DNA from: a candidate division WOR-3 bacterium
Lineage (GTDB): Bacteria > Hydrothermota > Tepidihabitantia > Tepidihabitantales > JBDRVQ01
DNA: 64,000 nt
Direction: 5' to 3'
Assembly: GCA_039801905.1 (NCBI GenBank)
Contig: JBDRVQ010000001.1
Span: 29,635-93,634, forward strand
The notes under the pieces are model-generated. The model had not been told where the DNA came from, searched no databases, and worked only from the letters and a program-made list of their open reading frames with translations. A program made the position numbers and the translations under genes. Within the stretch, counting starts at the first letter, position 1; every line of letters begins with the position of its first letter. Positions 1 to 58,187 of this stretch are shown in pieces.

Positions 1-701
1 GAGAGGGAGCCGATCTCATACAACCTTCGGGTATTGGCACTCTCCTTCCCTCCCGCCACCAGACCGGCATCAACCTTTCCCATCACCTCCTTAAACATCT
101 TCTGCCGCCAGAAAACTTCTCGGCAGATGGTATTAAAAACGCGGATCTCCGAGAAATCATTCTTCACAATCTCCGAGAGGGCAGAATCCATAAACTCCTT
201 AGCTAAGGTCGTCTGACAAACAATCCCAACCTTATCCCATTTTCCGAGAAAAGTCAAATCCCTTTTTTGAGAAGGGTTGGTAGAAAAGAGAAAGCCTCTC
301 TCCCCCAGGTCCTCCATCAGGGAGATCACCTCCGGGTGATCCTGGTCGCCGAGCACCACAACCCGATAGCCATCCGCCAATAGCATCTCTACTATCTCCT
401 TAACCCTTCTCACATAAGGGCAAGTGGTATCAACCAATCTTATACCATATTTTTCTATTTTTTTCAAGTGGCGCGAAGAAATACCATGGGTTCTTATCGC
501 CAACACTCCTTTAAGATTCTTCCTCACCTTCTTTAAGGGGAAGATCCCCTCTCCTTTTAACTTCTCCACCACCGGCCGGTTATGAATAATCTCCCCTAAG
601 GTATAAATCTTTTTATATCTCCTCTTCGCCTCCGCTAAAAGCCGGAGGGCGCGTTTCACTCCGGAACAGAAGCCGAAGGGCTTAACCGCCAAAACCTTCA
701 T
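1..701 (-). CDS. ispH: 4-hydroxy-3-methylbut-2-enyl diphosphate reductase (IspH/LytB); 3' end runs off the window
   Basis: Minus-strand translation starts MKVLAVKPFGFCSGVKRAL (IspH N-terminal Cys motif) and later shows ...AGGKESANTRRLYEI near the C-terminus. No stop codon before position 1. The ATG overlaps the plsC stop. Confidence 0.8.
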   Translation of the reverse strand, partial: MKVLAVKPFGFCSGVKRALRLLAEAKRRYKKIYTLGEIIHNRPVVEKLKGEGIFPLKKVRKNLKGVLAIRTHGISSRHLKKIEKYGIRLVDTTCPYVRRVKEIVEMLLADGYRVVVLGDQDHPEVISLMEDLGERGFLFSTNPSQKRDLTFLGKWDKVGIVCQTTLAKEFMDSALSEIVKNDFSEIRVFNTICREVFWRQKMFKEVMGKVDAGLVAGGKESANTRRLYEIGSL

Positions 702-1314: not shown

Positions 1315-1976
1315 AAGGTCTTAATCAAATCAATAAAAATTTCCACTTCTTCGGCAATTGTCAGATGGGTGGTATCAATATAGATTGCGGAAGGTAAACG
1401 AACCAGAGGGCTTGCCTCCCGCCAGGAATCGATCCGATCCCTCTCCTGCAAATTCTCCATAATCTCTTCTAAGGGGAGGAGAATCCCCTTCTTTGCCAAC
1501 TCCTTCCTTCGCCTCTTCGCCCTTTCCCTTAAATCACAAAAGACAAAGACCTTTAAGTCGGCATCCGGAAAGAGAACACTTCCGATATCCCTCCCTTCGC
1601 CAATCACATTTTTCCCCTCGGCAATTTTTCTCTGCCACCTCACCATTCTCTCCCTCACCGCTTTAATCTCAGAGAGATAAGAGACTATCCGGTCAACCTC
1701 CGGTCGGCGCAGGTCTCCGGTCACCTCCGCACCGTTCAGATAGACCTTCGCCTCCCTCCCATCCCAGTGGAAATCAATAACCGTGCGGGCTAAGAGGTTA
1801 TTTAAATTATTAAAATTTTGGTAATCTATCTTTTCCCTTAAAACCGCCAAAGTGAATGCCCGATAAAAGGAACCAGTCTCAAGATAGAACCAATTTAACC
1901 TCCGGGCAGCGGACTTCGCCATCGTTGTCTTTCCGGAACCCGAGAGACCATCTACTGCCACCTTAAAATATCTCAT
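1311..1976 (-). CDS. cmk: cytidylate kinase
   Basis: P-loop GLSGSGKTT at the N-terminus; length and order cmk-plsC-ispH are typical. Confidence 0.85.
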   Translation of the reverse strand: MRYFKVAVDGLSGSGKTTMAKSAARRLNWFYLETGSFYRAFTLAVLREKIDYQNFNNLNNLLARTVIDFHWDGREAKVYLNGAEVTGDLRRPEVDRIVSYLSEIKAVRERMVRWQRKIAEGKNVIGEGRDIGSVLFPDADLKVFVFCDLRERAKRRRKELAKKGILLPLEEIMENLQERDRIDSWREASPLVRLPSAIYIDTTHLTIAEEVEIFIDLIKTL

Positions 1977-2070
1977 GTCATAATTCTAACAATAATTTCC
2001 AATTTTTCAATGGTGGAAGGATGAGCAGAAATTGTGCCGGAGAGGAAGATTTACCGAAATGGAACTGAAA

Positions 2071-2530
2071 ATTTAGTGTCAGAAAATGGGGGGTATTTCC
2101 GTATTTATTATAGAGGGCTATGAAGAAGTTAAAAGAAATTATTAAGGTAAGTTATTGGGTTCTAATCCCAACCCTTATCTCAGAAGAGAGATTAAGGAGG
2201 TGTTATGAGATAATTAGCACTTAATAAAAATGGCATTAAATCATAAGACCTTTATCAAACAGGAGGGGTTTATCTTTATAAAAAGGGGTGTAGCATACAG
2301 GGGATGGTATCAGGGATTTAATGGAAGGGATAATAGAAGTTTTAATAAAAGGCGTAATTTTAGACTTAATCGGAGATTTAATAAAGGGTTTAATCAAGAA
2401 TTTAATAGAAGGTCTAAAAGAGGATATAAAGAGAAGGATAATCAGGAGCCTAAGCCAAGGTATAATCCAGAGCCTAATTAAAGGTTTAATCCGAAGTCTA
2501 AATGGAAGCCTAATCCTAAGAGAAACTTTA
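2071..2530 (+). repeat. Modular intergenic element copy 1: leader (TATTTCCGTATTTATTATAGAGGG ... GGGTTCTAATCCCAACCC), conserved core 2261-2315, then about 17 x 12-nt T-A-A-T-phased tandem units 2322-2526
   Basis: Direct sequence comparison with the copies at 33008-33582, 56588-57735 and 19030-19440 (inverted). The 12-nt period is visible as TTAAT/CTAAT/ATAAT every 12 nt. Confidence 0.8.
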
Positions 2531-2676: not shown

Positions 2677-5600
2677 TCATTTCGTAATCACAAGTTTCTT
2701 TAATATCGCTTCTCTTCCTTTTCGGAAAAAAAGAAAATAGATACGGGGGGAGAGTCTTTGGGCATTGAAGAGAAAAGAGTCAGAATATTTCCCGGGCAAT
2801 TCTCTCCTTAAAAGAATATCAACCCGTCGGCCGGTAGCATCATAAAGGATGATCTCCAATCTCCCCGGCCTTTCTACCCGGTAGCTAATCTTTGCCTCCT
2901 GCCGGATAATGGTTGGTAATTCTAAATAGAGGGTTCGCTTCGCTGGTGAAAATAAAAGATCCGGAATGGTAAGGGAAGACATTGTGGTTCTCATCTCGTA
3001 AAACTCTTGGGTATTATTCCCTTTTAAGGCATAGACCTTGTCCTGGGCATAAGCCAGAGAAGCACCTTCTTTTACCCCTCTCCTTTTTCCGGTAATGGGT
3101 AAGGGAGTAAGGGAAAACCATCTCTCTCCTCTGATGTCATAAGCCCAAAATTCTGGACTATTTCCACCCTTAAAGGCATAGATAAGTTTTAACTTTTTAT
3201 CATAGGTTAATGCGCCATCTCTAACAACTTTTGCCTTCTCCGTGGGTGGCAAATCAAACAATTCCATCCATAAACGAAGACGGGGGGCATAGGCATAAAA
3301 CTTATTCGTCTTCCCTTTCAAAACATAGATATTCTGCCCATCAGTAGTGAGGGCACTTCCCCTATCAAATCGCTTCTTTCCTGGACCTTCGGGCGGAAAA
3401 GGTAAGTCTGTAAACCAAATCTCCCTCTCACAATTATAAGCATACCATTCCGTGGTTCTTCTCCCTTTCAAAAAATAGACATATCCGGTATCGCCCAATT
3501 GGAGATAGGTGAGTCCTGCCCCAGCCAAAACCTTCTTCTCACCCGGAACATCCGCTAACCTTAGCCAGACCGGTTCCTCCCTTTTTGTGTCGTAGCGCCA
3601 GAATTCTTTTGTGTTATGACCTCTAAGAAGATAGAGATACCTCCGACCATCATAAGTAATTGCCGCCCCCTTCCCTACCCGCTTTTTCGCCTCCGAATTT
3701 GGAAAACTGTCAACGAATTCCCAGGTGTCATTCCGAATAGAATATCGGTAGAAATCATTTGTATTATTCCCTTTTAAGGCGTAGATGGTGGTATCGTTAA
3801 CCGCCACCAAACATCCCCCACCCTTCACCTTTTTCTTACTGGGTCCTAAGGGAAACTCTGCTTTGGGAAACCAGAGGAAAGCGGGGGTTGATTCCGAGAG
3901 GATTAAGAAGTCGTCAATTAGCCAATAGTTTCCGTGATCACCACAATAGAGGAAGGCGATCCGAACAGTGGGCTTGCCAATTACGAAATCGGTAATTTCG
4001 TGAAGGACGTATCCGTAATCATCAGTTCCTTTATATTTCGCAATACTATGCCAACTCAAACCGTTATCCGTTGAGAGCAAAACTACTCCGGAGTCCGGAT
4101 ATCTTTCATTATCATCATAATCATTAAAGTAACTCAACCAAACGGAATTGGCAGTGGCACAGTTAATTACCGGGGAGATTAAGGTGTCATTATTCACCTC
4201 CAATATCTCATCGGAAATCATCGCTCCCCATCGCCCATTTTTTCTTCCCTTATGCCAATCGTTGGTATTCCAGACCGGAGGTGATTCACTTCCTCCCGCT
4301 CCAATGCGCCAACCAAAAGGTGGATTGTCACCATAAGGTCCCCAATCCCCATCAAAATCTTCCGCATAGAAGGGAGGGAAAACAATCTCTTTTTTTCTCA
4401 CCTTCACCCTCCGCCGGAAAGTATCGTTGCGTGGCCGCTCGTCTCCTCTCAGTTCGGTCCAGACCTTAACGGAACAGGTAACAATCCCTAAATAGTAAGG
4501 GGCAAGCCAATCGGGATTAAAGACCACTCGGGCAGTATCCCTACCCAATACGATAGAAAGTCTCTCTTCGCCTTGATATGAATAACCATCCGGTCCAGTG
4601 ATTTGGAGTTTCACCGGCACATCCCTTTGGGTCAAAAGCCCAACATTTTTCACTGTCGCCTGGATGGGATAACTACTTTCGCAATAGACCGTCTCCGGCA
4701 TATGAATGGCGATCGTTTTCAGATCATTGAGTAAGGGCTGGAAGGTGGAGATCGCCCTCCGACAATTGACCCTCCCCCAACCGTAATTGTTATTGGGATA
4801 GGGTCCACCTTGAATTGGCTGGTCCGAAGAATCAAGGAGAGCGGAATACACCGCCCGATACTCAGAAAACCCCTTATCCAGAAGCAAGGCGACCGCCCCG
4901 GCAATGTGGGGAGCAGCGGCGGATGTCCCTCTACTCACAATATAACCGCCTCCGGGAGAGGCGGAACGAATCCCAATCCCCGGGGCAACAAGGTCCGGTT
5001 TTATAAAATTCCAATCCAGTCTTCCCCAATACTCCGATTGATTCCAGGGCGGAAGATTGGGAGCCGGACCCCGACTGGAGAAACTTGCCACTGTATCGTT
5101 AATATCGGTTGCCCCAACACCAATCACAATTGGGAAGTTACCCGGTGCTAAGTCGGTCATTGGGTTAGGACCATTATTACCGATGGCAAAAACAGGAATA
5201 ATCTCAAGTTCTCTTAAATTCCGGAGGATATTCCAAAAGAGGGTGGCCGTTCTCTCCCCACCCCAAGAGTTGCTTATCACCTGGGGGGCATCTTCACCCA
5301 ATCCGGCAAACCATTGGAGACACTCCGCAATTATGGAAAACCATCCCGTTCCTAACCGGTCAAATCCCTTAGCGGCAATAAATTGGGCACCGGGTGCCAC
5401 ACCGATATCCTCGGGAAAAGGACCAAAACCATCACCACCACAGATTATCCCCATCGTGTAAGTGCCATGCCCATTATCATCATAAGGGGTTTGATGATGG
5501 GCAACGGCATCAAACCAGCCGTTGCGCTCCCGCCAGCGGTTGCCAAAAGCCGGATGATAAACATCAACTCCGGTGTCTAAATTGCCTACGACAACCCCTT

Positions 5601-18864: not shown

Positions 18865-18937
18865 TGGGTCGTGCAGGATTCGAACCTGCGGCCACCGGAT
18901 TAAAAATCCGGTGCTCTGCCACCTGAGCTAACGACCC
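18865..18937 (-). tRNA. tRNA-Lys (anticodon UUU)
   Basis: Cloverleaf read from the sequence: 7-bp acceptor stem GGGTCGT/ACGACCC, anticodon stem CCGGA/TCCGG with loop TTTTTAA, T-loop GGTTCGAATCC. No encoded CCA. Confidence 0.85.
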
Positions 18938-19029: not shown

Positions 19030-19440
19030 CAATTGCCAACCCATTTATTGGGAGCGGATGGAAAGCGAAGGCTCTACTCAAAAAGAAAAGATTATCCATC
19101 TCCACTAATCATTCTCAATTAGGCTTCCATTTTCCCTTCGGATTAAACCCATAGTTAGACATAGGATTAAACTCTTTATTATCCCTTCTATTAAACTCTG
19201 AATTAAAGTTCCAATTATACCCTCTTTTAGAGTATTTATTAAATCCTCAATTAGATCTCCAATTACGTGTAAAATTATCCCTTATTTTAGACCCTATATT
19301 ATGCCTTCCATTAAATCCCCGATACCATCCCCTGTATGCTACACCCTTTTTACAAAAATAAATCCCTCCTTTCTAAGGATAGTTTTTCTTATCAGTTAGT
19401 TAATTTATTATATTATAAAGCAATTTTGGAAGATGTCAAT
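19030..19440 (-). repeat. Modular intergenic element copy 4 (inverted): consensus promoter TTGACA -16- TATAAT (19412-19439), core 19317-19370, 12-nt T-A-A-T array about 19100-19316, tail module 19030-19100 shared with copy 2
   Basis: The reverse complement matches the core and tail of copy 2 almost base for base. The promoter hexamers are perfect consensus. Confidence 0.8.
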
Positions 19441-32731: not shown

Positions 32732-33007
32732 TTTTCACCTCTTCACTAAAATTAAGTTTAGGGGAAAAAAAGGGAAAGTCAACATTGGTATGGAAGCAAT
32801 AAGAGAGAAGAGCCACTTTATGGTGGTAGAGATTTTTGACCAAAAGAATTGAATTTCTCGTTGATGATAATACCTTGCCAAAATAAACCTCTCGCCACCT
32901 TCTATTCAAGAAGAAGAGTTACAATCTAAGGAGTGAGCGGAAGATAAAAAGATGAAATAGAACTTTCCCACTTCGGTGGTCACACCCTTCTGAAAAGTGT
33001 CTCTTGA

Positions 33008-33582
33008 ATTAAATAAGTTATTATAAATCAAAGGCTTATAAAAAAGGGGGAAATTTAGTGTCAGAAATTGGGGGGTATTTCCGTATTTATTATAGAGGGC
33101 TATGAAGAAGTTAAAAGAAATTATTAAGGTAAGTGATTGGGTTCTAATCCCAACCCTTGAAGAGAGATTGAGGAGGTATTATCGGGTAATTAGCACTTAA
33201 TAAAAATGGCATTAAATAATAAAAAACTTTATCAAACAGGAGGGGTTTATCTTTATAAAAAGGGGTGTAGCATACAGGGGATGGTATCGGGGATTTAATG
33301 GAAGGCATAATCTAAGGCATAATTTTAGGCTTAATCGGAGTTTTAATAGAGGGTTTAATTGAGAATCTAATAAATACTCTAAAAGAAGTTATAACCGGCG
33401 GTATAATCAGAAGCCTAATTCAGAGTTTAATAGAAAGGATAATAAAGAGTTTAATCATGTGTCTAATTAAGGGTTTAATCCGAAGGGAAAATAGAAACCT
33501 AATTGAGAATGATTAGTGGAGAAGAATAATCTTTTCTCTTTGAATAGAGCCCTCGCTTTCCATCCGCTCCCAATAAATGGGT
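33008..33582 (+). repeat. Modular intergenic element copy 2: far-upstream module 33008-33050 (shared with copy 3), leader 33051-33237, core 33238-33292, 12-nt T-A-A-T array 33298-33510, tail 33490-33582 (shared with copy 4)
   Basis: Direct alignment to copies 1, 3 and 4. Confidence 0.8.
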
Positions 33583-33745
33583 AAAACTTTCCCCGGATGC
33601 GCATCGTGTGCCAATGAGGGCAAAATCTGATTTCCTTGCTGGGTGGATACCGGGAAACTATCAATAATAACACCAGAAGGATTTAAGCGGGCACCATAGA
33701 TATCAGATCACAAGATAATTTATGCCATCTTTCCCGGATTTTATG

Positions 33746-46447: not shown

Positions 46448-47410
46448 ATGAAAAAGAGATTATTAGTTTTAATTTTTCTCACCACTGGTTTATTGGGAAA
46501 GGAAGAGTTTCCCGCTTTATTCCCGATTCGGCAAAACTTCCGCTACGGATTGATTGACTCTACGGGAAAAATTGTCGTCAAACCACAACTTGATGGAATT
46601 GATGACTTCTCAGAAGGGATGGCAGTGATTAGAATCAATAACCAGTGGGGTTATATTGATGCCCGGAACTGGCAGGTCTTAAAGACTAAGTTTGAACAGG
46701 TTGGCCGTTTCTCCGAAGGGAAGGCGCGTGTCTTATACAAAGGGAAATGGGGTTATATTGACCGAAATGGGAAATTTGTGATCAAGCCCCAGTTTGAGTT
46801 CGCCGGTGATTTTCGGGAAGGGAAGGCCGCGGTGGGTATTGGGGGCAAGGTTGGTTACATTGATTCTACTGGTAAATTTATTATCAGTCCCCAGTTTTTC
46901 TCCACCTTCAACTTTTCCGAAGGGAGAGCGGGTGTTTTAGTTGGTAATAAACTCGGTTATATTGATTCGACCGGCAAGGTGGTGATTAAACCGATCTTTG
47001 ATTTCATCTGGGACTTTAAGGAAGGTTTGGCTCGGGTAATGGTCAATAGGAAATGGGGTTATATTGACCGAAATGGGAAGTTTGTGATTAAGCCCCGGTT
47101 TGATGAGGCATTTGATTTTTCGGAGAGTCTGGCCGCGGTCCGGGTGAAGGAGAAAATCGGTTATATTGACAAAAAGGGTAAATTTGTTATCAAACCGAAA
47201 TTTAAAGCCGGTGGCGAATTTTCAGAAGGACTTGCCCCGGCCTTAGCCGATAGTCTTTGGGGTTATATTGATAAAACTGGTGAGTTTAAGATTCAACCGA
47301 GTTTTGAAATCGCCTATCCCTTCTTTCGGGGTTTGGCAAAAGTGCAAATGAAAGGAAAGATCGGTTATATTGATAGAAGGGGAATTTTTATCTGGGAGCC
47401 AACGGAGTAG
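46448..47410 (+). CDS. WG-repeat (KWG) containing lipoprotein/exported protein
   Basis: Eight tandem units of about 37 aa with KWGYIDxxGKxVIKPxF. Confidence 0.8.
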   Translation: MKKRLLVLIFLTTGLLGKEEFPALFPIRQNFRYGLIDSTGKIVVKPQLDGIDDFSEGMAVIRINNQWGYIDARNWQVLKTKFEQVGRFSEGKARVLYKGKWGYIDRNGKFVIKPQFEFAGDFREGKAAVGIGGKVGYIDSTGKFIISPQFFSTFNFSEGRAGVLVGNKLGYIDSTGKVVIKPIFDFIWDFKEGLARVMVNRKWGYIDRNGKFVIKPRFDEAFDFSESLAAVRVKEKIGYIDKKGKFVIKPKFKAGGEFSEGLAPALADSLWGYIDKTGEFKIQPSFEIAYPFFRGLAKVQMKGKIGYIDRRGIFIWEPTE

Positions 47411-50316: not shown

Positions 50317-51344
50317 TTAAGCAAAACTCCTTCACCTTTCAATTTTTTTGCCACTTCTAAGACATTAATATTTACCGGACAGGTGTCAATACACCGGCCG
50401 CAGCCGACGCAGGCGGGGCGGCCAAATTCGGTGATGAAGGCTTTCAATTTATGGGTATACCACAATTTCACCCGCGAGGAGCGTCTCTCCCGAAAATTAT
50501 GCCCGCCCGCCACTAAGGCGAAGTCTTTAAGCATACAGGAATCCCAATGTCTTTCCCGAAACCCGGCTTTTTCCCCAATGGGAAGATGGTCTTGGACATT
50601 AAAACAAGGGCAGGTGGGACAGACCATAGAACAAGCACCACAGGAAAGGCATTTCTCGCCCAACTCCTCCCAGATTGGGGCATCGTAACTTAACTCCATA
50701 ATGTCGGGCATGGCGGTTAAATCCAAATGAAGTTGGTATTGGTTGTCGCGCCATTTCCGCCATTCAATATACTGGGTTAAATCCTTCTGGGTGATATTCT
50801 CATCAAAAAGTTCTAAACGGCTCCTTACCAAATCGTCCCCAACCGAAGAGCCAACCCAAACTAAGTAATGGTCATCTAACTCATTAAAGCCCAAATCAAA
50901 ACCCTCTTCAATGAAATGGGTATTGGTGGAACGGGCAAAACATTTATCATCCGGCACGCAGGAAAGGCCAATAATTATTGTTCTCTCCCGGGCTTTTCGG
51001 TAATAAGGGTCAGGAAGTCTTTCCTTAAATAAGCGGTCTAAAATTAAGATACTATGGATTTCACAAGGGTGAAGGCCAAAAATGATGCGCATCGGAATTT
51101 CTTCGGGAACCTCTTGGTATTGATTTATCGGATCAAATTTAAGAATCGGAAATTTAGGGGGTAAGAGAAATTTCTTTACCGGCAGAATGGTTCTTAAAGC
51201 GGTAAGTTCTAATCGGGAAAAATCGGTTAACTTTTCGTAGATAAACTTATCACCCTTTCTTACCGGACCGTAGACCTCCCCAAACTTTTGAATTCCTTTT
51301 AAGAAGTCAAATAAGTTCTCTTTCTTTAACTTTAAGGCTTTCAT
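50313..51344 (-). CDS. hydB: hydrogenase beta subunit (polyferredoxin/4Fe-4S)
   Basis: CLSCGACSMVCPTCPCF and CVGCGRCIDTCP clusters. N-terminus MKALKLKKENLFDFL matches the sulfhydrogenase beta start (ORF extends to 51404). Confidence 0.75.
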   Translation of the reverse strand: MKALKLKKENLFDFLKGIQKFGEVYGPVRKGDKFIYEKLTDFSRLELTALRTILPVKKFLLPPKFPILKFDPINQYQEVPEEIPMRIIFGLHPCEIHSILILDRLFKERLPDPYYRKARERTIIIGLSCVPDDKCFARSTNTHFIEEGFDLGFNELDDHYLVWVGSSVGDDLVRSRLELFDENITQKDLTQYIEWRKWRDNQYQLHLDLTAMPDIMELSYDAPIWEELGEKCLSCGACSMVCPTCPCFNVQDHLPIGEKAGFRERHWDSCMLKDFALVAGGHNFRERRSSRVKLWYTHKLKAFITEFGRPACVGCGRCIDTCPVNINVLEVAKKLKGEGVLLK

Positions 51345-56502: not shown

Positions 56503-56587
56503 TTATCCAACGTATTGTAACCAATTTTTCCCTTTTGTCAACCTTGGTTTTATAATAAAAAGGACTCTTAAACCCTACTTTTCCCAA

Positions 56588-56703
56588 TCAAATAAGTTAT
56601 TAAAAATCAAAGACTTATAAAAAAGGGAAAGATTTGGTGTCCAATTTTTGGGGGTATTTCCGTATTTATTATAGAGGGGTATTGGGTTCTAATCCCAACC
56701 CCG
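56588..56703 (+). repeat. Modular element copy 3, leader part (far-upstream module, TATTTCCGTATTTATTATAGAGGG, GGGTTCTAATCCCAACCC hairpin) directly preceding the RBS of the embedded two-gene cassette
   Basis: Alignment to the copy 1 and copy 2 leaders. Confidence 0.75.
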
Positions 56704-56718
56704 AAAAGAGAGGTGCGT

Positions 56719-57087
56719 ATGAAAGATGCTTTAAGGCGAATAGAGAAGTATATATCTAAGTTAGAACCAGAGATTATAAGAAGAGATTTTGCCCAATTGA
56801 AAGAGAAGATGCTACAACAGATTACCACCTACTTTATAGAGATCTTTGAGGTTGAGACAAAGGCAAAGGCGATTTTAAGCGAATACGACCTACCGGTTAG
56901 TCTTATCCCCTTTTATCTATGCTATGCCCGGGAATTATATAGCCTTTCTAAGAGATATGCGGGATTTCCTCTCTTCCGGGAGATAAGGATTAGGGAGGGA
57001 AAATGGCGAAATAGAACTCTCCAACCGGAAATTTTAAGAAGGATAAGATTTGATATATTTGGCATAACCTTACCGGAGGAGATATGA
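56719..57087 (+). CDS. hypothetical small protein (about 122 aa) embedded in repeat element copy 3
   Basis: RBS aagagagg 6-7 nt upstream. ATGA overlap with the next ORF. No recognisable motif. Confidence 0.5.
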   Translation: MKDALRRIEKYISKLEPEIIRRDFAQLKEKMLQQITTYFIEIFEVETKAKAILSEYDLPVSLIPFYLCYARELYSLSKRYAGFPLFREIRIREGKWRNRTLQPEILRRIRFDIFGITLPEEI

Positions 57088-57419
57088 GGATTGAGATAAA
57101 GAAGAAGAAGTCACTGGAGAGATTGGCGAAGATGGCAAGGAGATATGCAGTTTATTATCCAGATGCTACAAGGAGTTACCTGAAAGGGATAGTTGACTAT
57201 GTCCTATTTGTGGAAGAGAAGGTGAAAGAGATTTTGGAGGAGCGGGGAATTTCGGTTATTTATCACTTTGCCTATTATGCCTTCGGTAGAAAGGTCTATA
57301 AACTCCTAAAAGAGAAGAAGGATTCCCAAATCCCTTCTTTAATTGAGGAGTGGGTGAAAGATAAATGTCTTTCCCGAGATGTTTTATCAGAGATTAAGGA
57401 GGCTTTATCGGAGAAGTAG
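57084..57419 (+). CDS. hypothetical small basic protein (111 aa) embedded in repeat element copy 3
   Basis: Translationally coupled to the previous ORF. Contains an R-x6-H stretch (RGISVIYH). Function unknown. Confidence 0.5.
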   Translation: MRIEIKKKKSLERLAKMARRYAVYYPDATRSYLKGIVDYVLFVEEKVKEILEERGISVIYHFAYYAFGRKVYKLLKEKKDSQIPSLIEEWVKDKCLSRDVLSEIKEALSEK

Positions 57420-57463
57420 GTCTTAAATAAGACTTAAGTTAAGTGATAAAAATTTTATGATGT

Positions 57464-57735
57464 AGGAGGGTTTTGTCTTTAGAAAAAGGGGTGTAGCATA
57501 CAGGGGATGGTATCGGGGTTCTAATGGAAAGTCTAAGTAACGGTCTAAACTTAGGTCTAATTGGAGTTCTAAATAAGGGTCTAAAAGAAGGTCTAAAAGT
57601 AGGGGTAATAAAAAGAGTAATTGGAAATCTAATTAAGAGTCTAATTGAAAATTTAATCCGAAGTCTAATTATAGTTTTAACCGAAAGCCCAATTGAAAGT
57701 CTAACCTCAAGTCTAAATATCGGCTCGGTGAAAAT
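57464..57735 (+). repeat. Modular element copy 3, core (57464-57518) plus about 17 x 12-nt T-A-A-T-phased units
   Basis: Alignment to the other copies; CTAAT/TTAAT recurs every 12 nt. Confidence 0.8.
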
Positions 57736-57755
57736 AGGGGAGGGCAATAACACTA

Positions 57756-57784
57756 TTGACAAGAATACTTTTTTTGTGTATATT
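57756..57784 (+). promoter_or_regulatory. sigma-70 promoter TTGACA -17- TATATT for hup
   Basis: Read from the sequence. About 125-nt leader with RBS aagggggtg before the ATG. Confidence 0.5.
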
Positions 57785-57914
57785 TTAGGAATGGAAGTGG
57801 CGATAGCGCCCCTCGGGGCAATACCTTGCCAAATCAATCTTTTCCCAACCATTTCTCTTTTAATAAGAAACTATCGTCCACCTTCCAAAAATCCTATTAA
57901 GGGGGTGATAAAAT

Positions 57915-58187
57915 ATGAAGAAAGCCGAACTTATTGAGAAAATCGCCAAGGATGCAGGCATCTCCAAGAAACAGGCGGGGCTCGCTCTCCAATCCTTTAT
58001 GGATGCGGTGAAGATGGTGATGAAGAAAGATGACGAACTGACCCTTCCCAAATTTGGCCGGTTCTATGTGAAGAAGACAAAAGCCCGAATTGGCCGGAAT
58101 CCAAAAACCGGAGAGGAGATAAAAATTCCAGCCAGGAAGAGACCGGCCTTCCGCGCGGGGAAGGAATTAAAACTCGCTGCTAAATAA
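57915..58187 (+). CDS. hup: DNA-binding protein HU
   Basis: MKKAELIEKIAK... with the arm GRNPKTGEEIKIPARKRPAFRAGKELK; 90 aa. Confidence 0.92.
   Translation: MKKAELIEKIAKDAGISKKQAGLALQSFMDAVKMVMKKDDELTLPKFGRFYVKKTKARIGRNPKTGEEIKIPARKRPAFRAGKELKLAAK

Follow-up and report, generated by a model that had tools for sequence, protein, structure and literature searches.

A gene-less recombinant locus in a WOR-3 bacterium belongs to a chromosomal system pairing Adnaviria capsid-like proteins with phased 12-nucleotide arrays

Organization of the locus and its paralogues

We analyzed a stretch of 64,000 nucleotides (nt) from contig JBDRVQ010000001.1 of a candidate division WOR-3 bacterium (hereafter the window), in which four related elements occupy intergenic gaps among ordinary chromosomal genes, namely those for cmk, subtilase, tRNA-Lys, recA, aldehyde dehydrogenase, glycosyltransferase and HU. 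The element at 33008-33582 lacks genes and is a recombinant paralogue belonging to a small chromosomal system of WOR-3 bacteria and their relatives. One part of this system is a single gene or two translationally coupled paralogous genes, whose small, basic, helical products have the Adnaviria major capsid protein (MCP) fold; the other part is a tandem array in which a unit of exactly 12 nt recurs 17-27 times. The unit motif is lineage-specific; in the window it is TCTAAT, with the TAA essentially invariant. This pairing of capsid-like proteins with 12-nt phased arrays appears not to have been described before, as we found no report of bacterial homologues of the Adnaviria MCP or of such arrays in the literature, our coverage of which was incomplete, so that an earlier account is possible.

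We refer to the window elements as copy 1 (2069-2522, plus strand), copy 2 (33007-33582, plus strand), copy 3 (19039-19439, minus strand) and copy 4 (56586-57725, plus strand), whereas L-numbers denote loci outside the window, with L001-L010 being further copies of the window family and L131-L144 loci of relatives. The genes of copy 4 are termed open reading frame (ORF) 1 and ORF2. All ten further copies come from WOR-3 metagenome-assembled genomes (MAGs), four having been retrieved via the DNA pattern in GTDB genomes and six from the surroundings of ORF2 homologues; the arrays of L001 and L003 coincide with contig ends, i.e., with assembly breaks. Copy 2 comprises the following features.

33007..33050, plus strand: upstream module common with copy 4 (56586-56630), with an inverted repeat ATAAG..CTTAT inside
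33051..33136, plus strand: relic operon leader, with a conserved block GGGGTATTTCCGTATTTATTATAGAGGG (33072-33099) and then a 37-nt segment, found in copies 1 and 2 only, that gives the micro-ORF its ATG
33072-33099, plus strand: possible weak promoter TTGGGG-17-TATAGA within the leader block (promoter scan negative)
33102..33200, plus strand: micro-ORF of 32 amino acids (aa) by translation, judged accidental
33137..33153, plus strand: leader hairpin TTGGG-TTCTAAT-CCCAA, whose loop is the array unit motif; also at 2155 and 56682
33163..33237, plus strand: remnant of the ORF2 3' end and the spacer following it, homologous to 57389-57463; marks the ORF1-ORF2 deletion in copies 1 and 2
33238..33295, plus strand: core, made up of AGGAGGGGTTTATCTTTATAAAAAGG, the invariant 25-mer GGTGTAGCATACAGGGGATGGTATC (33264-33288) and 7 nt
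33296..33511, plus strand: array of 18 tandem 12-nt units (TAAT n r a a r G t y), 17 of them with the in-phase TAA
33512..33582, plus strand: tail common only with copy 3 (85%), with an AT-rich imperfect hairpin AGAAGA..TCTTTTCT followed by a T-rich run, a possible weak terminator (terminator scan negative)

The other window copies are laid out as follows.

2069..2522, plus strand: copy 1, a gene-less orphan with relic leader 2069-2260, micro-ORF 2120-2224, hairpin 2155-2171, core 2261-2318 and 17-unit array 2319-2522
19039..19439, minus strand: copy 3, a gene-less orphan adjoining tRNA-Lys, with promoter TTGACA-16-TATAAT 19439-19412, core 19370-19314, 17-unit array 19313-19110 and tail 19109-19039
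56586..56718, plus strand: copy 4 upstream module and leader, with hairpin 56682-56698
56719..57087, plus strand: ORF1, 122 aa from its ATG (alternative start GTG at 56713), a basic (isoelectric point 9.6), all-helical protein of the Adnaviria MCP fold
57084..57419, plus strand: ORF2, 111 aa, a paralogue of ORF1 whose start overlaps the ORF1 stop by 4 nt (ATGA)
57464..57521, plus strand: copy 4 core, with the 25-mer at 57490-57514
57522..57725, plus strand: copy 4 array of 17 units (16 with TAA), followed by the promoter of the HU gene at 57756-57784

In all four window copies the core opens with AGGAGGGnTTTaTcTTTaTAAAAAGG and continues into the 25-mer, which is identical in 11 of 14 copies and carries a single mismatch in the remaining 3. 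A 20-mer shared by the cores occurs 4 times in the window as against 0 times in 100 shuffles, and a scan of the JGI metagenomes with it returned no match. The array starts exactly 7 nt past the core and extends for 17-18 units in the window copies; the ten further copies have the core with at most one mismatch and an unchanged phase, such that a TAA is placed 7 nt beyond the core and at every twelfth nucleotide from there in 14/14 copies; of the first 20 units, 12-18 have it in register in every copy not ended by a contig end. The logo of 156 units reads T(.94) A(.97) A(1.0) T(.69) n r a a r G(.61) t y. The spacers of the copies diverge by 30-40% while the period of 12 and the near-invariant in-phase motif persist, and the window arrays are strongly strand-biased, with 8-12% C.

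The end of the core in every copy (window and L001-L010) also forms a five-codon mini-ORF, ATG GTA TCN GRR NNY TAA (2302-2321, 33279-33298 and 57505-57524 on the plus strand, 19330-19311 on the minus strand), the serine codon of which wobbles (TCA, TCG, TCC) and the frame of which is that in which every array TAA is a stop. Outside the arrays, [AG]GTCTAAT or GTTCTAAT is encountered only in the three leader hairpins, at 51206 and in the first array unit of copy 4. The pentamer CTAAT is about 2-fold depleted in the window outside the arrays (82 on both strands vs 155 +/- 13 in mononucleotide shuffles), which we did not use as evidence, as it probably reflects generic avoidance of stop codons and CTA.

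Copy 2 is a chimera, and copies 1 and 2 are deletion derivatives

A previous reading of the window from its sequence alone had described the elements as an actively shuffling mosaic family, in which copy 2 shares its leader with copy 1, its upstream module with the element at 56588-56630 and its tail with the reverse complement of 19030-19100. Self-BLAST bears out each of these matches: 2069-2491 aligns with 33051-33456 (84.9% over 425 nt), the leader part being 98% identical; 33007-33103, encompassing the module 33008-33050, aligns with 56586-56682, encompassing 56588-56630 (86.6% over 97 nt); 33582-33238 aligns on the opposite strand with 19039-19370 (83.8% over 345 nt), the match containing CGCTTTCCATCCGCTCCCAATAAATGGG; and 33163-33358 aligns with 57389-57584 (77%). 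That reading had overlooked that the body of the element, 33296-33511, is a TAA-phased 12-nt array, that copy 4 has two real genes between leader and array and that the micro-ORF occurs in copies 1 and 2 only; the tie of the family to capsid-like genes had likewise escaped it.

Recombination within copy 2 is evident when its core and array are considered at the sites where copies 1 and 3 differ, since copy 2 agrees with copy 1 at 26/31 of these to the left of a breakpoint at ~33355-33360 and with copy 3 at 32/39 to its right. The maximum chi-square of 30.1 is reached in 0/5000 permutations, and the segment identities agree with this chimerism. The module boundaries, on the recurrence of which the shuffling claim had been made to depend, do recur in other genomes, at the 5' edge of the core (AGGAGGG), which divides three kinds of upstream module: the intact gene pair, the deleted leader and the bare promoter.

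Copies 1 and 2 have the stretch that precedes ORF1, hairpin included, joined straight to the last ~30 nt of ORF2 and the sequence downstream of it, and these copies are consequently deletion derivatives of a cassette resembling copy 4. Intermediate stages of decay are represented by L008-L010, with truncated genes of 48 and 84 aa, and by L001, where only the start of ORF1 fused to the end of ORF2 is left. Copy 3, L003 and L004 lack a leader and retain a promoter only, which in copy 3 is a perfect TTGACA-16-TATAAT 41 nt upstream of the core, recovered by the promoter scan, and in L003 and L004 the same consensus as read by eye. Across this series the genes are lost while the arrays stay with their phase intact. 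Furthermore, L006 and L007 have identical ORF2 but different arrays and downstream genes. No transposase-like ORF is present in any copy, and no terminal repeats or target-site duplications were noticed at the copy boundaries, for which no formal search was made. The mosaic structure and the recombination thus stand, but paralogous chromosomal loci that recombine by homology, suffer deletions and decay match the pattern better than does an autonomously shuffling mobile element.

The micro-ORFs of copies 1 and 2 (2120-2224, 34 aa, and 33102-33200, 32 aa), separated by a 6-nt indel, are present as previously noted, but they do not constitute a conserved gene. Their start lies in the 37-nt segment unique to these two copies, their middle is the conserved leader hairpin and their end is the ORF2 remnant in another frame; copy 4, L001, L131 and L144 lack the ATG-bearing segment and with it the micro-ORF. 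As copies 1 and 2 are 98% identical in this part, their apparent conservation reflects recent duplication rather than selection, and the micro-ORF is accidental.

The array is neither a gene nor a folded RNA

The array frame spells (I/K)xx(L/I/V) and might be read as a small amphipathic protein of four-residue repeats, with the interrupted copies being pseudogenes. Such a reading could draw on the openness of this frame in copy 1 (84 aa) and copy 4 (ORF 57524-57937, 137 aa) and on the depletion of G at the isoleucine wobble position. Nevertheless, a start with an uninterrupted frame is found in only 2/9 distinct copies, 5/9 lacking an ATG and 5/9 having in-frame stops (1 in copy 2 and 2 in copy 3), and one reverse frame is equally open, which is an effect of composition. 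Within-unit conservation displays no 3-nt periodicity in the 156-unit logo. The would-be Leu/Ile/Val junction codon is NTA in 65/65 cases as against 21% in 13 long window genes (P~3e-44), although CTA is the rarest leucine codon in those genes. A Pfam search gave no match for the array frame, and the equivalent frame in other lineages yields chemically unrelated repeats or is full of stops. We accordingly reject a protein-coding tandem-repeat gene, there being no conserved start, intact frame or codon-like pattern of substitution, and regard translation of the array as extremely improbable; annotation should not treat these intergenic repeats, or the small ORFs that they seem to contain, as genes.

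Nor does the array behave as a structured RNA. Copy 3 taken as RNA (376 nt) folds no better than shuffled sequences (z = -0.04), and alignment folding recovered no covariation in the core and no structure in core plus array. Searches against Rfam 15 retrieved only the tRNA-Lys at the gathering score over the whole window, and only a chance snoRNA match below threshold at E<=1 over 32950-33650. Readings of the core as a G-quadruplex or as CsrA sites were also discarded, the G-tracts and GGA not being conserved in L004 and L008.

ORF1 and ORF2 belong to the Adnaviria capsid fold family

A search among 1.84 billion cluster representatives recovered 300 relatives of ORF1 at E<=0.001, mostly of ~120-124 aa; all of those with an organism named at source are from WOR-3 bacteria. 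We compared the family with reference MCPs from Pfam (PF12193/PF21660) and the PDB (3j9x, 6wq0, 3fbz, 5w7g). A profile of 62 sequences matches the MCPs of SSRV1 (6wq0, E=1e-6) and SIRV2 (3j9x, E=2.4e-6) over their full length and, more weakly, those of SFV1 and AFV1. PF12193, "Sulfolobus virus coat protein", is matched individually by 12/62 members (best E 4.6e-12), and the hidden Markov model of the family scores SIRV2 ORF134 at 31 bits. On its own, window ORF1 has no Pfam match and ORF2 has weak, sub-threshold matches to PF12193/PF21660. The AlphaFold model of ORF1 (predicted local distance difference test (pLDDT) score 93.7) exhibits the Adnaviria MCP fold, being alpha-helical with a C-terminal four-helix bundle and a long N-terminal helix. 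ORF2 is a paralogue of ORF1 (hhalign 97.5%, E=7e-12), and both are basic. The family belongs to the Adnaviria capsid fold family, and the system is not a virus. Searches of PHROGs, NCBIfam and PADLOC gave no meaningful family, and IMG/VR viral contigs, scanned with two family members, gave nothing beyond one spurious 8-bit match.

The 4-nt overlap of start and stop in the gene pair recurs in L005, L131 and L141; two adjacent paralogous genes with such a conserved overlap would fit a heterodimer. Several family members are long (P0030, P0031, P0048, P0089, P0117 and P0132; 250-495 aa), their N-terminal capsid-like domain being followed by a long C-terminal extension. DUF2341 and Laminin_G_3 domains are present in P0089; Pfam was otherwise uninformative on these multidomain homologues.

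Arrays and capsid-like genes are linked across divergent lineages

We then surveyed 323 kb, i.e., the window plus 26 loci, for sequence periodicity. All regions of period 12 or 24 either have an MCP-like ORF at most 150 nt away or are orphans of the WOR-3 family that carry the core; apart from these, periodic regions were of period 7 only. Linkage between gene and array recurs in six lineages, whose proteins are only 28-60% identical, whose unit motifs differ and whose arrays may be upstream or downstream of the gene.

Arrays lie downstream of the genes in the window type (motif TCTAAT) and L131 (60% identical to ORF1; motif TCTAA), both with two genes, and in L144 (42%; motif CTATT), which has one. 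In the single-gene loci L132 (~28%; motif GAGTnACTC), L133 (~30%; motif GGACwGTCC) and L140 (motif GAGTnAyy) they lie upstream. The array of L135 is weaker.

Throughout, the period stays the same and the motif varies from one protein lineage to the next; this comparative evidence strongly suggests a functional link between gene and array. Likewise, the symmetry of the unit varies with gene number: it is reverse-complement symmetric in the single-gene loci L132, L133 and L140 (r=0.94, 0.83 and 0.76; p<0.002, 0.024 and 0.016, respectively) and no such symmetry is seen in the two-paralogue lineages (p=0.99 and 0.28), a split that would be predicted if one homodimer or heterodimer, respectively, occupied each unit on duplex DNA. 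A scan of metagenomes for eight TAA at 12-nt spacing detected at least 120 loci, none of which, among the matches listed, encodes an MCP-like protein, and these we judged to be unrelated.

It might be argued that the arrays are selfish or neutral slippage-prone minisatellites on a small mobile cassette, their linkage to the genes being due to common descent or hitch-hiking. The occurrence of several copies per genome, the chimerism, the gains and losses of units, the differing flanks of the cassette among MAGs and the breaking of assemblies at arrays (L001, L003) are all in keeping with this. However, neutrality would not hold 156 units in register with TAA at 94-100%, nor preserve period and motif while the spacers diverge as described above; moreover, ~30%-identical protein lineages with unrelated unit sequences have an equal period, and the arrays outlive the genes with their phase intact. 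We hence consider this explanation improbable. The arrays could alternatively serve as operators or iterons for another DNA-binding factor, e.g., the HU nucleoid protein, with the capsid-like genes merely being regulated. Copy 4 abuts the HU promoter, and the arrays of L132, L133 and L140 are situated just upstream of the promoter of the gene, but HU is not a constant neighbor (an M48 peptidase takes its place in L005 and L006), the capsid-like gene is the only consistent neighbor of the array and the period is the footprint of that very family; this alternative strikes us as very improbable.

Many arrays (e.g., window 2329-2520 and 57517-57700, L140 733-1147 and L144 5521-5770) have a super-period of 24 nt that equals or exceeds the 12-nt one in strength, with two flavors of unit alternating. 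It is clearest in L144, in which TCTATTCTCT alternates with CCTATTnGGT, and could represent a dimer-of-dimers register.

Proposed role as platforms for capsid-like assembly

The asymmetric unit of the SIRV2, AFV1 and PFV2 virions is one MCP dimer with 12 bp of A-form DNA, and 9-16 such dimers make up a superhelical turn (PMC5517147, PMC7189273). The array period of exactly 12 equals the DNA covered by one adnaviral dimer. In light of this, we propose that one capsid-like dimer, in the window probably an ORF1/ORF2 heterodimer, would recognize each 12-bp unit and that contiguous units would nucleate a short phased helical nucleoprotein filament on the double-stranded array, which at 17-27 units and the virion values would amount to ~1-3 superhelical turns. 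The intact gene pair of copy 4 would serve the orphan arrays of copies 1-3 in trans. In copy 4 and L131 the leader hairpin is positioned just upstream of the ORF1 ribosome-binding site, and its unit-like loop is a candidate autoregulatory site. Duplex DNA is favored as the substrate by the homology and by the symmetry of the units. We give roughly an even chance to the arrays being phased assembly platforms for capsid-like dimers, with one dimer per unit on duplex DNA. More tentatively, and with less confidence, we posit that the WOR-3 group and its relatives possess cellular, non-viral MCP homologues which assemble sequence-specifically, one dimer per 12-bp unit, on dedicated phased arrays dispersed over the chromosome as short virion-like, possibly A-form, nucleoprotein particles.

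Several observations weigh against this proposal. Adnaviral MCPs coat DNA with no known sequence specificity, and a scan of the SIRV2 genome found no comparable 12-nt array. The single-gene locus L144 has an asymmetric unit and breaks the rule relating homodimers to palindromes, leaving three loci for that rule (four with L135 counted) and one against it. No array occurs closer than 10 kb to the gene pair of L141-143; an array is also lacking at L139, and the case of L137 is ambiguous. Among the gene pairs with no array adjoining them is that of the 1.56-Mb contig Ga0453288_0007. The model of ORF2 is of low confidence (pLDDT 65), and the proposal gives no role to the invariant 25-nt core. Finally, some arrays have promoters aimed into them: a perfect one in copy 3, consensus-like ones recognized by eye in L003/L004 and L135, and weaker candidates, also by eye, at other loci. 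These promoters, the strand bias of the window arrays and the hairpin-loop position of the leader motif accord with an RNA substrate no less well than with DNA.

The substrate might instead be the transcript of the array, an abundant unstructured non-coding RNA or a segment of the untranslated region of the capsid-like mRNA, which would bind dimers every 12 nt and act as a scaffold, a sponge, an antidote (as do CsrB or type III antitoxin RNAs) or a packaged RNA. RNA is favored by the promoters directed into the arrays, the strand bias in the window and the motif in the hairpin loop. The promoter of copy 3 and its by-eye counterparts in L003/L004 are of the sigma-70 type, L135 has TTGACG-17-TATACT right before its array, and L132, L133 and L140 share a conserved -10-like AGTATA..AATA block ahead of theirs; in copy 4, L131 and L144 the arrays follow genes with no terminator called between. 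The window arrays are C-poor and unstructured, an A-to-G change in the L131 leader hairpin would keep a G-U pair, and the promoter-array-gene layout recalls type III toxin-antitoxin loci. On the other hand, all known homologues bind double-stranded DNA, a dimer with two-fold symmetry on a duplex would predict the palindromic units of the single-gene lineages, and the strand bias is not family-wide, the L144 array being T-rich rather than purine-rich. We regard an RNA substrate as rather less probable than duplex DNA.

Comparison with known systems

The proteins resemble the MCPs of the Adnaviria (Rudiviridae, Lipothrixviridae and Tristromaviridae) in homologous sequence and fold and in being basic, in the occurrence of one gene or two paralogues (a likeness here of genes only, there of homo- and heterodimeric capsomers), and in the agreement between the array period and the 12 bp of A-form DNA per virion dimer. 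They differ in that the hosts here are bacterial rather than archaeal, and in that the cassette is ~1.2 kb in size and placed among housekeeping genes (recA, cmk, glycosyltransferase, HU and tRNA-Lys in the window, with other loci also flanked by housekeeping genes), with no other viral genes, terminal repeats or linear genome of 17-41 kb. Instead of sequence-independent coating of a whole genome, there is a short array with a sequence-specific in-phase motif; SIRV2 is without such an array, and no family relatives were found in IMG/VR with the two query members.

Plasmid partition centromeres, such as those of the ParR/parC (R1, pSK41) and TubR/tubC systems, the latter with 12-bp iterons, bind one dimer per iteron in a cooperative helical superstructure and are autoregulated. 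The present system shares with them short tandem iterons adjoining the gene of a small protein, this adjacency being observed here, and the likeness may extend to binding and assembly. It differs in having a four-helix bundle rather than a ribbon-helix-helix or winged-helix protein and several chromosomal arrays that are mostly gene-less and longer (17-27 units); no ParA, ParM or TubZ NTPase gene is found among the neighboring genes of the window and the other loci examined.

Type III toxin-antitoxin systems (ToxIN, CptIN, TenpIN) have 34-45-nt pseudoknot RNA repeats upstream of the gene for an endoribonuclease toxin. The likeness is that of a repeat array beside a single protein gene, upstream of it in some lineages, and a stoichiometric action on the protein would match; by contrast, the units here are of 12 nt and unstructured, the fold is that of a capsid protein rather than an endoribonuclease, there is no PADLOC match and the window array is downstream. 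The small RNAs CsrB and RsmZ sequester CsrA via GGA motifs in hairpins. They are comparable in their multi-copy paralogous loci, their many evenly spaced short motifs and the matching motif in an mRNA leader hairpin near the ribosome-binding site; here, however, the invariant motif is UAA(U) rather than GGA, the motifs are not in hairpins, there is no Rfam match and the protein is unrelated to CsrA. The nearest functional analogue would probably be the complexes of plasmid centromere-binding proteins with their iterons; were the substrate RNA, it would be type III antitoxin arrays or CsrB-like sponges, with no defining feature of either RNA system being seen here.

The alpha-helical MCP of the Adnaviria has been described as unique to archaeal filamentous viruses, and the realm as unconnected to bacterial or eukaryotic viruses (PMC12282232, PMC10848233). 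If the proposed assembly is real, its physiological role would be that of a new kind of bacterial chromatin or regulatory element, and the proteins would represent a cellular ancestor of the Adnaviria capsid or a domesticated capture thereof. We know of no settled account of the origin of this capsid protein. A diversified bacterial MCP-like family among housekeeping genes, with an array period equal to the dimer footprint, makes the origin of the fold testable, as it does the reading of DNA sequence by a capsid fold, e.g., at a natural phased "positioning sequence" for a protein that induces the A-form. The compact system of two genes and 200 bp may also lend itself to the building of defined nucleoprotein filaments.

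Neighboring genes and unrelated repeats

An HU-family gene (57915-58187, Pfam E=7e-31), with an 11/12 promoter at 57756-57784, is directly downstream of the copy 4 array. HU also follows the cassette in L002 and L007 but not in L005/L006, which have an M48 peptidase/LemA pair. The tRNA-Lys(TTT) gene (18865-18937, minus strand) begins ~100 nt downstream of the copy 3 tail and has a promoter-like site of its own, TTGACT-16-TAAGAT (18973-18946). In L005 (5406-9252) the cassette sits beside an N6-methyltransferase/Eco57I-like gene and an nSTAND NTPase in a defence-island-like setting that was not seen at other loci.

In the JBDRVU01 MAG a GC-rich palindromic insert (GTCGCTCGCCTTTGGCRAAGTCTCGCC...GGCGGATAAGAC) separates the ORF2 stop from the core, and it also occurs upstream of L003 (L001 ~240-330, minus strand; L002 ~4870-4950, minus strand; L003 ~1960-2080, plus strand); the window copies do not have this insert, which resembles a small, independent repeat element. 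Intergenic 7-nt arrays, (TGCAGAR)n, occur in GC-rich relatives (L133 391-721 and 10501-10849; L134 7327-7675; L135/L136 955-1135) and are unrelated to the 12-nt arrays. Similarly unrelated is a 55-nt direct repeat (46743-46797/47049-47103, 94.5% identical) inside the ORF 46448-47410, which encodes an internal protein repeat of the KWGYIDRNGKFVIKPQF type.

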